Of a stretch of 64,000 nt of DNA, positions 12,607 through 22,036 are shown one piece after another. The stretch's first letter is position 1. Every line of letters begins with the position of its first letter. The notes under the pieces were generated by a model that worked only from the letters and a program-made list of their open reading frames with translations, ran no database searches and was not told where the DNA came from. The stretch lies in the UHGV virus genome UHGV-0171999; one strand, given 5' to 3'. This DNA is from a virus. The translations under genes were made by a program, and so were the position numbers.

Positions 12607-12679
12607 TGGGAATTAGCCAAGTTGGTAAGGCACTGGATTTTGATTCCAGGATGCAAAGGTTCGAGTCCTTTATTCCCAG
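12607..12679 (+). tRNA. tRNA-Gln (anticodon UUG)
   Basis: Cloverleaf by eye: acceptor tgggaat/attccca, anticodon loop ttTTGat, T-loop TTCGAGT. Confidence 0.8.
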
Positions 12680-12680
12680 C

Positions 12681-12767
12681 GCGAGAATGGTCAAATTGGT
12701 AAAGGCACAGCACTTAAAATGCTGCGGAATGATTTCCTTGTGGGTTCGAGTCCCACTTCTCGCACCA
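12681..12767 (+). tRNA. tRNA-Leu (anticodon UAA), long variable arm, CCA encoded
   Basis: Acceptor gcgagaa/ttctcgc, anticodon loop ctTAAaa, T-loop TTCGAGT, ends ACCA. Confidence 0.8.
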
Positions 12768-12772
12768 AATTT

Positions 12773-12846
<74 letters not shown>

Positions 12847-12856
12847 ATTTAATTTA

Positions 12857-12931
12857 CTCCGTGTAGCTCAATGGCAGAGCGATCGCCTGTTAAGCGATTG
12901 GTTATAGGTTCGAATCCTATCACGTCCGCCA
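12857..12931 (+). tRNA. tRNA-like element, anticodon GUU (Asn), three mismatches at the acceptor-stem end; possible pseudo-tRNA
   Basis: D-arm GCTC/GAGC, anticodon stem atcgc/gcgat with loop ctGTTaa, T-arm atagg-TTCGAAT-cctat, 3' GCCA; 5' ctccgtg pairs with 3' cacgtcc at only 4 of 7 positions. Confidence 0.4.
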
Positions 12932-12935
12932 AATC

Positions 12936-13011
12936 CGAGGCATAGCTCAGAAGGAAGAGCAAGGACCTTCTAAGTCCTAGGTCGTAGGTTCGATCCCTAC
13001 TGCCTCGACCA
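12936..13011 (+). tRNA. tRNA-Arg (anticodon UCU), CCA encoded
   Basis: Acceptor cgaggca/tgcctcg, anticodon loop ctTCTaa, T-loop TTCGATC, ends ACCA. Confidence 0.8.
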
Positions 13012-13379: not shown

Positions 13380-13718
13380 AAACCGGGTCGCTACCGGTAA
13401 GTCGTCGGACTGATGTTCCCTGCGTAAGGACTGGCATTAACAAATCTTTACGATCTGTTAATGTCCCCTTACATCACAGCAGAAACGGCGCACAGAATTA
13501 TCGATTCGAGGAAATATCTTTGCCGTAAGCCGAGTAGCGTTTTTGACGGAACGTTCGGATATGGTCGAGATATGGCCTTTTAAAAATATTGAGTAGCGTC
13601 AACTGCTTAATAACCGGGTTCGAATCCCGGCGTTTCGTACAAACACTTGCCTTAGCAGGTGGAACCCCGACAAGGTTGCCGCAAGGCTTAGCCCCGACCA
13701 AAAGGTTGGGGCTTTTTG
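13380..13718 (+). ncRNA. putative stable small RNA region (species 1/2, rnaC/rnaD-like), ends in an intrinsic terminator
   Basis: About 340 nt with no credible ORF; contains tRNA T-arm-like ccgggTTCGAATcccgg near 13613-13629 and terminator hairpin plus T-run near 13690-13718; T4 has stable RNAs next to its tRNA cluster. Confidence 0.35.
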
Positions 13719-13850
13719 GTATCTAGGCCTTTCTGGACCTCTCTAGGCATCATTTAGTTTCTACCCTTTATAATATATTATCCTATCCTTTAATTGCCCC
13801 TTTCATCCCTAGAATTCCCTAAAACTTTTTAAAAAATTTTTCACAAAACT

Positions 13851-18764: not shown

Positions 18765-19343
18765 ATGAAAACGTATAAAGAATTTATCGCCGAGGCCTTT
18801 GCAGGAAAAGCTCAAGGTATTAATAAGGACGAGTGGACTTATCGTGGTGGAAACGGCTTTGACCCTAAAACTGCTCCACTTGAACGATATCTAGCCACAA
18901 AAGCTTCTGATTTTAAAGCCTTCGCTTGGGAAGGACTTCGCTGGCGTAACGATCTAAATATTGAAGTTGACGGACTTAAATTTGCTCATATTGAAGATGT
19001 TGTTGCTAGTAACTTAGACGCAGCTTTTGTTAAAGCCGACAGTGACCTTCGTCGCTGGAATTTAAAACTGTTCTCTAAACAAAAAGGCCCGAAGTTTGTG
19101 CCTAAAGCAGGTAAATGGGTTATTGATAATAAATTAGCTAAGGCTGTCAACTACGCCGGTCTTGAATTTGCCAAGCATAAATCATCATGGAAAGGTCTTG
19201 ATGCAATGGCTTTCCGTAAAGAATTTGCCGATGTTATGGCTAAAGGCGGCTTTAAGGCAGAAATAGATACCTCTAAAGGTACGTTTAAAGACGCTAATGT
19301 TCAGTACGCTTACGCCGTTGCTAATGCGGCCCGTGGTAATTAA
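18765..19343 (+). CDS. internal protein (IPIII-like) with capsid targeting sequence
   Basis: N-terminus MKTYKEFIAEA; 192 aa, lysine/alanine rich. Confidence 0.6.
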   Translation: MKTYKEFIAEAFAGKAQGINKDEWTYRGGNGFDPKTAPLERYLATKASDFKAFAWEGLRWRNDLNIEVDGLKFAHIEDVVASNLDAAFVKADSDLRRWNLKLFSKQKGPKFVPKAGKWVIDNKLAKAVNYAGLEFAKHKSSWKGLDAMAFRKEFADVMAKGGFKAEIDTSKGTFKDANVQYAYAVANAARGN

Positions 19344-19345
19344 TA

Positions 19346-19366
19346 AGGCCTATACTTAGGCCTATT
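19346..19366 (+). terminator. hairpin terminator after the IP gene
   Basis: aggccta-tact-taggcct followed by attt. Confidence 0.45.
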
Positions 19367-19520
19367 TACATTCAAATAACATGGGAACAAGCTGGACTTC
19401 ATGATTCTGTGAGGGATTCCCGCCAACCTATAATAAGGTCGAGCCCAAGTGCGGTAATGGGTAAATACAGAAATGGACAATTCATGCGCCATGGAATGGC
19501 CCAAATTTAGAGAGAATAAA

Positions 19521-20060
19521 ATGAGAACATTTTTAACTGGTCCTTATCTATCCCTGATGAATGCTTTTACACACCATTCTGATGCTAGAGTAGAAGAAAT
19601 TTGTAAAAACGATTATATCCCACCATTTGAAGACTTACTTAAGCAGTATTGCACACTTCGACTAGATGGTGGACGTCAATCTGGTAAATCAACTGCAGTA
19701 ACTAATTTTGCCGCTAATTGGTTGTATGACGGTGGAACAGTTATTGTTCTTTCTAATACTTCAGCTTACGCTAAAATTTCTGCGGGCCACATTAAAAAAG
19801 AATTTTCTCGTTATTCTAGCGATGATATTCGATTCCGTTTATTTACTGATTCTGTCCGTAGTTTTGTTGGTAATAGAGGTAGCAAGTTCAGAGGTTTATC
19901 GCTTTCTCGAATTTTGTATATAATCGATGAGCCTGTTAAAGCTCCTGATATGGATAAAATTTACGATATTCATATTGAAACTGTGCAACACTGTTGCAAT
20001 AGTAAATGCTGCATTGGTGGTATTACTCGTCCACAGTTTTTCGTAATTGGGATGCAATGA
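19521..20060 (+). CDS. hypothetical P-loop protein
   Basis: Walker A-like GGRQSGKST; ORF 19473-20060 with alternative Met at 19521. Confidence 0.45.
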   Translation: MRTFLTGPYLSLMNAFTHHSDARVEEICKNDYIPPFEDLLKQYCTLRLDGGRQSGKSTAVTNFAANWLYDGGTVIVLSNTSAYAKISAGHIKKEFSRYSSDDIRFRLFTDSVRSFVGNRGSKFRGLSLSRILYIIDEPVKAPDMDKIYDIHIETVQHCCNSKCCIGGITRPQFFVIGMQ

Positions 20061-20386: not shown

Positions 20387-20394
20387 GAGGTTAT

Positions 20395-20757
20395 ATGAAA
20401 GCATATCAAATTCTTGAAGGCACGCATAAAGGTACTATTTATTTTGAAGACGGTATTCAAGCACGAATTATTGTATCTAAAACCTTTAAAGAGGACTCTT
20501 TTGTAGACCCAGAAATTTTCTACGGTTTGCATGCCCGTGAAATTGAAATTGAAACACAACCTACAGTTAAAATTGAGGGTGGTCAACACCTGAACGTTAA
20601 CGTTCTGCGTCGCGAAACTCTGGAAGATGCAGTTAAGCATCCGGAAAAATATCCGCAGCTGACCATCCGTGTATCCGGTTATGCAGTTCGCTTTAACTCT
20701 CTGACTCCGGAACAGCAGCGCGACGTTATTGCTCGTACCTTTACCGAGAGTTTGTAA
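20395..20757 (+). CDS. autonomous glycyl radical cofactor (GrcA/YfiD-like)
   Basis: C-terminal [59 protein letters not shown] with glycyl-radical motif RVSGY, as recalled for E. coli GrcA. Confidence 0.8.
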
Positions 20758-20978
20758 TGGCAAAGATAATTATTGAAGGTTCTGAAGATGTGTTAAATGC
20801 TTTCGCCGAATGGTTTAGTAATTCAGGCGAACAACAATTTAACGAAGCGTGGAACATGGGTGATATTAATGGAATTTATCCTACGACAGAAATTTCTGTT
20901 CAAGGATATGGCATTCATGAGCCTATTCGTTTAGTTGAATATGATTTGGGAACAGGTGAGGAAGTAAAATATGATTGA
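20757..20978 (+). CDS. hypothetical protein
   Basis: 73-aa ORF, overlap-coupled. Confidence 0.4.
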   Translation: MAKIIIEGSEDVLNAFAEWFSNSGEQQFNEAWNMGDINGIYPTTEISVQGYGIHEPIRLVEYDLGTGEEVKYD

Positions 20979-21574: not shown

Positions 21575-22036
21575 ATGACTATCAACACAGAAGTTTTTAT
21601 CCGTCGAAATAAGCTCCGTCGTCACTTTGAGTCGGAGTTTCGTCAAATTAACAATGAGATTCGTGAGGCATCAAAAGCAGCAGGGGTCTCATCGTTTCAT
21701 CTAAAATATTCTCAACATCTTCTTGATCGTGCAATTCAACGGGAGATTGATGAGACATATGTTTTTGAATTATTCCATAAAATAAAAGACCATGTTTTAG
21801 AAGTTAATGAATTCCTGAGTATGCCTCCGCGTCCTGACATTGACGAGGATTTTATCGATGGGGTTGAATATCGTCCTGGGCGTTTAGAAATCACAGATGG
21901 AAATCTTTGGCTTGGATTTACAGTTTGTAAACCTAACGCGAAGTTCAAAGACCCGTCACTTCAATGTAGGATGGCCATTATCAACAGCCGTCGTTTACCA
22001 GGAAAGGCTTCTAAAGCAGTAATTAAAACTCAATGA
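21575..22036 (+). CDS. regB: site-specific endoribonuclease RegB
   Basis: 153-aa ORF MTINTEVFIRRNKLRRHFESEF...; matches recalled T4 RegB; synteny next to vs. Confidence 0.75.
   Translation: MTINTEVFIRRNKLRRHFESEFRQINNEIREASKAAGVSSFHLKYSQHLLDRAIQREIDETYVFELFHKIKDHVLEVNEFLSMPPRPDIDEDFIDGVEYRPGRLEITDGNLWLGFTVCKPNAKFKDPSLQCRMAIINSRRLPGKASKAVIKTQ

Follow-up and report, generated by a model that had tools for sequence, protein, structure and literature searches.

A short tract of Escherichia coli grcA inside the vs.6 gene of a T4-like phage

Introduction

How does a gene in an AT-rich phage genome come to end in codons that look like those of its host? The question is raised by an open reading frame at positions 20395-20757 (+ strand) of a 64,000-nucleotide stretch of viral DNA (UHGV virus genome UHGV-0171999; the whole stretch is referred to here as the window). 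An initial annotation, made from the sequence alone, took this frame for a GrcA-like glycyl radical cofactor gene with a host-like 3′ half and read it as a recent patch of host grcA, acquired by recombination. Neither the gene, which corresponds to vs.6 of phage T4, nor its biochemistry is new. The T4 protein Y06I and E. coli YfiD/GrcA have been described as two experimentally validated “spare part” proteins, Y06I being activated by the activase of pyruvate formate-lyase (PFL) and then rescuing PFL that has been cleaved by O2 (Wagner et al. 2001, as cited in PMC8683613), and vs.6 has a Pfam-level note in PMC1524935. The identity between vs.6 and E. coli grcA is likewise visible to anyone who runs BLAST with T4 against E. 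coli. In the full-text literature that we searched, a body whose reach stops short of the key older reviews, we found no published description of vs.6/grcA as a mosaic at the DNA level. In this study, we used sequence comparisons to delimit the host-like segment, to ask whether it reflects an exchange of DNA, and to place it in the evolution of the T4-like phages.

Results

The gene begins with an ATG at 20395 and ends with a TAA at 20755-20757, comprising 120 codons and the stop, and is preceded by a Shine-Dalgarno-like GAGG (20387-20390, + strand) that lies 4 nt 5′ of the ATG. Its stop codon overlaps the start of vs.5 in the sequence TAATG, so that the last A of the stop is also the A of the vs.5 ATG (20757-20759). 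It is flanked by vs.7 and vs.5, with vs.4, vs.3, regB (21575-22036), and vs.1 following downstream. The window is a segment of a Tequatrovirus (T4-like) genome; the 2.2 kb around vs.6 are 97% identical to Escherichia phage SP1, and identity ranges from 92.7 to 96.4% among the other T4-type matches of full length that were listed. The encoded protein agrees with that of T4 vs.6 at 119 of 120 residues (T54 here, P54 in T4), and this near-identity, together with the kept place in the vs.8-vs.7-vs.6-vs.5-vs.4-vs.3-regB cluster, identifies the gene as the orthologue of T4 vs.6; the T4 homologue named in the initial annotation, Y06I, was thus the right one. A scan for promoters and terminators around vs.6 gave no signal above the shuffled expectation. 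Farther upstream, a perfect 7-bp GC-containing hairpin (AGGCCTA...TAGGCCT, 19346-19363) directly follows an open reading frame ending at 19343 and is terminator-like on both strands. Between this hairpin and vs.7 lies an open reading frame of 195 amino acids (19473-20060) with a P-loop-like GGRQSGKST motif; it has homologues of 44% identity in Klebsiella T4-like phages, and its label in phage SP1, “large terminase subunit,” looks like a misannotation.

The assignment of the product to the GrcA family, supported by the open reading frame itself and by the match to T4, is also borne out by profile and structure searches. Pfam PF01228 (Gly_radical) matches residues 60 to 101 with 67.2 bits (cutoff, 22.2), the closest solved structure is that of E. 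coli GrcA (PDB 6owr, E = 4.6e-42), and residues 58 to 120 align to residues 697 to 759 of PFL, that is, to its C-terminal radical domain (PDB 1h16, E = 4.8e-26). The glycyl-radical motif RVSGYAV occupies residues 92 to 98 (20668-20688, + strand), and the radical glycine, G95, is encoded at 20677-20679 and corresponds to residue 102 of E. coli GrcA, in keeping with an alignment offset of +7. With 120 amino acids, the protein is small, stands alone, and consists essentially of a glycyl-radical domain, as do members of the GrcA/YfiD type, which are small stand-alone proteins of about 14 kDa. The NCBIfam equivalog profile for GrcA (TIGR04365) gives 154.6 bits, below its cutoff of 170, and aligns only with residues 20 to 120, because the N-terminal half has diverged; by this strict criterion, the protein would be classed as a GrcA-like homologue rather than as an equivalog.

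At the protein level, codons 61 to 120 encode exactly residues 68 to 127 of E. coli GrcA, its last 60 residues with RVSGYAV included, as the initial annotation had indicated. At the DNA level, the gene falls into three parts. The first, 20395-20572 (+ strand; codons 1 to 59 and the first base of codon 60), is AT-rich, phage-type sequence that resembles GrcA only distantly. The second, 20573-20744 (+ strand; codons 61 to 116 and adjoining bases), is E. coli grcA sequence with 2 mismatches to MG1655 in 172 positions (170/172 identical to K-12 grcA). The third, 20745-20757 (+ strand; the third base of codon 117, codons 118 to 120, and the stop), is again of phage type and carries four synonymous differences: the last four sense codons read ACC GAG AGT TTG in the phage versus ACT GAA AGC CTG in the host, both encoding T E S L. 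The host-like stretch had originally been placed at about 20570-20757; it is real, and its left break is at 20572/20573, but it ends at about 20744.

A blastn search of 5,426 complete E. coli genomes, the check that had been proposed for this locus, aligned 20573-20757 with the 3′ end of grcA in every genome, the best match reaching 96.8% (179/185), and returned no match for 20395-20572. Relative to MG1655, the mismatches fall at 20577, 20730, 20745, 20748, 20751, and 20752, leaving a perfect run of 152 nt (20578-20729). T4 itself is even closer to a living host allele, agreeing at every one of 178 nt (20573-20750 in window coordinates) with grcA of E. coli SK1144 and many other strains, and matching this allele type at 183 of 185 positions, with both mismatches within the last 7 nt. 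The two phages differ at codon 73, which is CGC in the window phage and K-12 and CGT in T4 and SK1144, and the changes at 20577 (A>G) and 20730 (C>T) are private to the window phage. When the whole 64-kb window was compared with the same 5,426 genomes by megablast, the vs.6 tract was the sole matching part: positions 1-25000 returned exactly the grcA and pflB places given by the tract alone (79.6% identity for pflB), and positions 25001-64000 returned no match.

Composition changes at the same boundaries. The GC content is 0.50 in the tract (20573-20744) compared to 0.337 in 20395-20572, and among all 172-nt windows of the 64 kb, which average 0.350 ± 0.043, a value of 0.50 is reached by only 0.085%, the others lying at a tRNA cluster and at 13.5 to 13.8 kb. 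Third-position GC (GC3) is 0.446 in the tract compared to 0.200 in the 5′ part and a mean of 0.254 across the long open reading frames of the window. All six leucine codons of the tract are CTG, all arginines are CGT or CGC, and all prolines are CCG. Both the E. coli-preferred codons against an AT-rich background and the sharp break inside the gene, as initially described, are therefore present, the latter being statistically unusual for this genome, and the compositional patch coincides with the tract, as in mosaics of the cyanophage psbA type. As for the few other GC-rich spots, the tRNA cluster (12607-13011) encodes Gln, Leu, Gly, and Arg tRNAs according to ARAGORN, and a fifth tRNA (12860-12924) is recognized by Rfam but not by ARAGORN. 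The second spot, 13382-13788 (GC content, 0.48 to 0.52), contains no open reading frame of at least 50 amino acids on the + strand and matches neither an Rfam family nor the E. coli genomes; its lone open reading frame, of 67 amino acids, is on the − strand (13498-13701), and we presume that the region may be the stable RNA C/D region of T4.

Can such similarity arise without any transfer of DNA? The radical domain is extremely conserved across homologues and grcA uses mostly preferred codons, so purifying selection on the protein combined with selection for E. coli-preferred codons might in principle drive phage and host sequences together. The phages themselves provide the yardstick. GrcA homologues are found in many virulent enterobacterial phages, including T4-like genera, T5-like phages, and jumbo phages, and across the corresponding 165 nt, those outside Tequatrovirus and Mosigvirus have 63 to 87% identity with grcA of E. 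coli, compared to 98.8 to 99.4% for the tract. Among them are the RB43-like phages, which share the same 60-residue C terminus with E. coli GrcA and yet are only 82 to 85% identical in DNA; protein constraint thus yields about 84% identity, not 99%, and at 84% per site, a perfect run of 152 nt has a probability of about 3e-12. The tract also shares nonpreferred codons with the host site by site (AAG81, CAT82, TAT86/96, TTT100/116, and CAA64), and neither the 5′ half nor the last four codons of vs.6 are optimized, which rules out convergent codon selection. Finally, in the Klebsiella phages of the genus Jiaodavirus, the corresponding tract follows Klebsiella codon choices instead. We therefore regard convergence without exchange as extremely improbable. 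The identity to host grcA, well above that of other phage homologues, and the significant compositional break were the two observations on which the initial annotation had let its reading depend, and both went in its favor.

As to the source, the phage tract is 99.4% identical to K-12 grcA, compared to 98.6% for grcA of another Escherichia species, 90.5% for Citrobacter, and 83.8% for Salmonella. The tract falls inside the diversity of E. coli, and on these comparisons, E. coli itself is the donor. The direction is from host to phage, as the tract has the composition of the host and the divergence of E. coli grcA from its relatives mirrors that between the species. The same two facts speak against a transfer from phage to host, and an assembly or contamination artifact is refuted by the distribution of the tract, which all 5,426 E. 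coli genomes contain and which recurs in about 650 phages sequenced independently of one another, T4 and T2 among them; we give either explanation next to no credence.

The host DNA could have entered in two ways: by joining a grcA 3′ fragment to an unrelated phage open reading frame through illegitimate recombination, or by overwriting part of a grcA homologue that the phage already had. The former would account for the observations that the 5′ half alone matches no NCBIfam family and has no DNA similarity to grcA. However, residues 22 to 60 of the vs.6 protein align, weakly and at low identity, with residues 28 to 67 of GrcA (BLASTP), and the alignment to the NCBIfam profile for GrcA begins at residue 20. 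Moreover, T4-like relatives from several other genera, which lack the patch, have a full-length AT-rich homologue with the same N terminus (MKAYQIL..G..KGTIY) at the same locus, in a shared vs.8-vs.7-vs.6-vs.4-regB neighborhood (as on contigs L088 and L090 and in Morganella phage MP1). The last four codons are also synonymous with those of the host but not host-like. These three lines of evidence, that is, the 5′ alignment to GrcA, the unpatched full-length relatives, and the synonymous but different last codons, indicate a preexisting homologue and make de novo capture very unlikely. The arrangement resembles that of psbA-type mosaics in that a near-host tract lies inside a diverged homologous open reading frame, with the qualification that the homology of the 5′ part is at the protein level and the right flank is 13 nt long.

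Our preferred explanation, which we hold with considerable confidence, is therefore homologous replacement (gene conversion) of a segment of a preexisting phage grcA homologue by host grcA, a reading limited on its right side by just 13 nt of retained phage sequence. The host origin that had been proposed for the patch thus stands, whereas “acquired” is better replaced by an exchange within a gene that the phage already carried. A full-length AT-rich vs.6 would long have been part of the vs-regB cluster in T4-like phages. A fragment of host chromosome bearing grcA may then, in an ancestor of the T-even phages of E. coli, have paired with vs.6 at the conserved region coding for the radical domain, and about 170 to 180 nt of vs.6 would have been replaced by homologous recombination or gene conversion, presumably by the UvsX-type recombination machinery of the phage acting on host DNA fragments. 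The left end would be the point at which phage and host sequences cease to align (E61-G62). The right end, just 5′ of the stop, would be set where homology runs out and where the overlapping start of vs.5 must be kept: E. coli reads TAAGGC at the stop, so a tract extending beyond it would destroy the vs.5 ATG. Codon 73 of the donor allele was probably CGT, the state seen in E. coli SK1144, and each lineage would have collected 0 to 3 private substitutions since entry. Among the phage records compared, we found no T-even relative with the same 5′ half and an unconverted 3′ half, and the state of the T-even lineage before conversion is inferred.

The tract is present in essentially all phages with a 5′ half of the T4/Mosigvirus type, which amounts to about 650 Tequatrovirus and Mosigvirus records, including T4 and T2. 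To gauge its age, we compared Tequatrovirus (T4, T2) with Mosigvirus (JS09, LF82-5, JM10). Nucleotide identity between the two genera is 66 to 73% in the flanking genes, 88 to 89% in the 5′ part of vs.6, 98.8 to 99.4% in the tract, and 77% in the last 13 nt. As a measure of age, we took the codons whose amino acid is the same in T2/T4 and Mosigvirus and determined what share of them is spelled differently; this is 41 to 50% in the flanks and 21 to 23% in codons 1 to 60 of vs.6, compared to 1 to 2 of 56 codons in the tract (binomial P, about 1e-11 to 1e-14 with the flanks as reference and 3e-5 to 9e-5 with the 5′ part as reference). Judged by these differences, the tract is much younger than the split between the two genera and, as in psbA-type mosaics, younger than its surroundings, and it therefore either entered more than once or moved between the genera by phage-phage recombination. 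“Recent” is thus apt in a relative sense only, as the tract is common to about 650 genomes.

One way to keep a tract young is to renew it. Repeated reconversion of the phage copy by host grcA in many lineages would explain why genera with flanks of about 70% identity have almost the same tract, why CGC and CGT, the two common forms of codon 73 in E. coli, are both found among the phages, and why the states at the right boundary (20745-20754) differ between phages; a separate conversion did, moreover, happen in Jiaodavirus. Within the T-even group, the sequences are compatible with one event plus spread as well as with several events: codon 73 is the single polymorphism shared between phages and hosts, and back-mutation could explain it. 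The boundary positions that vary among T4-like phages are 20745, 20748, 20751, 20752, and 20754. Against continual renewal, Tequatroviruses isolated on Salmonella, Yersinia, and Citrobacter retain the E. coli allele, and the E. coli-infecting relatives G5211 and MIZ5 are unconverted, at 75.7% and 70.1% identity. None of the 5,426 E. coli genomes has the private tract variants of JS09, a pattern in line with one event and later decay, and the identical boundaries and scattered private changes in Jiaodavirus fit one ancestral event. We consider ongoing homogenization unlikely and favor a small number of events, perhaps just one, after which the tract spread and slowly decayed.

A second, separate case comes from Klebsiella phages. 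The vs.6 homologues of KPV15, W15-2, Roth78, TU02, and KP1079, which belong to the genus Jiaodavirus in the four cases where a taxonomy line is given (W15-2, TU02, and KP1079 among them), contain a tract of about 160 nt that is 94 to 98% identical to a full-length bacterial grcA. In KPV15 (L107, 1501-1859), the 3′ region is GC-rich, encodes the variant LLDAVEH, and is 76% identical there to the Klebsiella T4-like contig L088. A scan of species-representative genomes (the 80 grcA loci closest to E. coli) revealed no close donor for the Klebsiella phages, the best reaching 91%, whereas a metagenome scan with a 32-mer from KPV15 recovered 24 loci (L169-L192), 22 of which are full-length bacterial grcA genes of 127 amino acids on contigs of up to 620 kb; where their names show a source, it is the human gut. 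The two donor loci examined have a GC content of 57.1% and ung adjoining grcA, and their closest named relative is a Klebsiella sp. metagenome-assembled genome (91%). KPV15 matches the donor grcA in a perfect run of 140 nt and with one mismatch over about 158 nt. Its tract starts at the E-G-G-Q codons and stops a few codons before the TAATG overlap, and W15-2, Roth78, TU02, and KP1079 (L193-L196, 323-685) have the same tract and boundaries at 94 to 96% identity; the related Klebsiella T4-like contigs L088-L092 are without the patch, at 73 to 76%. The donor grcA differs from the E. coli allele by 12 to 13%, and the phage tracts carry 1 to 8 private changes. The Jiaodavirus patch is an independent event at the same position with a Klebsiella-type grcA. 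Phage genera with different hosts thus show two independent exchanges, one of E. coli type and one of Klebsiella type, and this segment of the gene has undergone replacement on at least two occasions, in each case by DNA of the genus that the phage infects. In the 5′ part of KPV15 (about 1620-1640 of L107), a run of T is 1 nt shorter and causes a frameshift, reflecting either a sequencing error or a pseudogene.

Other phages hint at further cases. In the RB43-like phages (L093-L097, 1501-1860), the C-terminal 55 to 60 residues are identical or nearly so to those of E. coli GrcA, and GC3 is 0.44 to 0.47 in the 3′ part compared to 0.23 to 0.32 in the 5′ part; this 3′ part may be an older, ameliorated host patch. 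The 3′ segment of the grcA homologue is 91% identical to Yersinia grcA on a 19-kb IMG/VR contig (L110, 1501-1794) and 86% identical to Haemophilus grcA on contig L102 (1501-1890), and both may be additional host-derived tracts. It is conceivable, although we hold this only tentatively, that overwriting by host grcA is recurrent and selectively favored, with the host chromosome serving as a template that keeps the phage protein matched to PflA and PflB. Were this so, phage grcA tracts would track the host genus, and the RB43-like phages would be its older, ameliorated instances.

Discussion

The gene analyzed here shares with T4 vs.6 (Y06I) its identity, its place between vs.7 and vs.5 upstream of regB, and its host-like tract, and it differs in the K-12-type CGC at codon 73, in the two private changes at 20577 and 20730, and in its last codons, where ACC GAG is less host-like than the ACT GAA of T4. 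With E. coli GrcA (YfiD), it has in common the last 60 residues, 170 of 172 nucleotides, the RVSGYAV site, and, by inference, the biochemical role. On the other hand, the phage protein is 7 residues shorter, its first 60 residues show just weak similarity and are encoded by AT-rich DNA, and the gene sits in a cluster of early phage genes, whereas grcA of E. coli is at its own locus adjoining ung. The vs.6 of Jiaodavirus is the same gene at the same type of locus, with a GC-rich host tract from the E-G-G-Q codons to near TAATG, but its donor was a Klebsiella-type grcA (LLDAVEH, from a chromosome of 57% GC) and it shows more decay since the event.

The nearest precedent is found in the photosynthesis genes of cyanophages. 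In psbA and psbD, patchy GC content has been attributed to intragenic recombination between host and phage (Zeidner 2005; Sullivan 2006; both as summarized in PMC3900582). There, too, a host-derived metabolic gene of T4-like myoviruses bears the signature of this type of process. Unlike cyanophage psbA, the present case concerns an enteric host and the group of the type species T4, consists of one tract of about 170 nt with sharp boundaries, reaches up to 100% identity with a named host allele, and is accompanied by a second event in another phage genus with another host.

The value of the locus is that of an evolutionary trace: within an older homologue lies a sharply bounded segment of about 170 nt whose identity to an extant E. 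coli allele reaches 100%, it comes from the best-studied group of virulent phages, and it is the sole such stretch in 64 kb. It documents that a strictly lytic phage with hydroxymethylcytosine (hmC) DNA does take up sequence of the host chromosome by homologous exchange and that such an exchange can become fixed, and the Jiaodavirus patch at the same position shows that the event is repeatable. T4 and E. coli form a tractable system in which to measure host-to-phage gene conversion and its homology requirements, and in which to ask whether a match to host partner proteins or to host codon usage is selected. On the practical side, the tract will give rise to spurious calls of “host contamination” or “host gene” when phage genomes are screened.

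Given its near-identity to T4 Y06I, the window protein is probably a phage-encoded counterpart of GrcA/YfiD, the autonomous glycyl-radical cofactor. A radical would be put on Gly95 within RVSGYAV by PflA, the activase of the host, and the radical-bearing phage protein would dock on PFL molecules that have lost their C-terminal radical domain to cleavage by oxygen, restoring the conversion of pyruvate to acetyl-CoA and formate. Expressed as an early phage gene, it could sustain fermentative energy metabolism in micro-oxic infections at a time when host expression is off.

Annotations of vs.6 among phages are inconsistent and include pyruvate formate-lyase, glycerol dehydratase radical, ribonucleotide reductase subunit, acetyltransferase-related, and hypothetical protein; the labels as pyruvate formate-lyase, ribonucleotide reductase subunit, and acetyltransferase stem from the host-like tract. 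In phage RB55 (L167, about 620-972), a 13-nt deletion removes the GYAV of the radical motif and shifts the reading frame of vs.6, no coding sequence is annotated at the site, and the deletion fits dispensability of the gene in laboratory culture.
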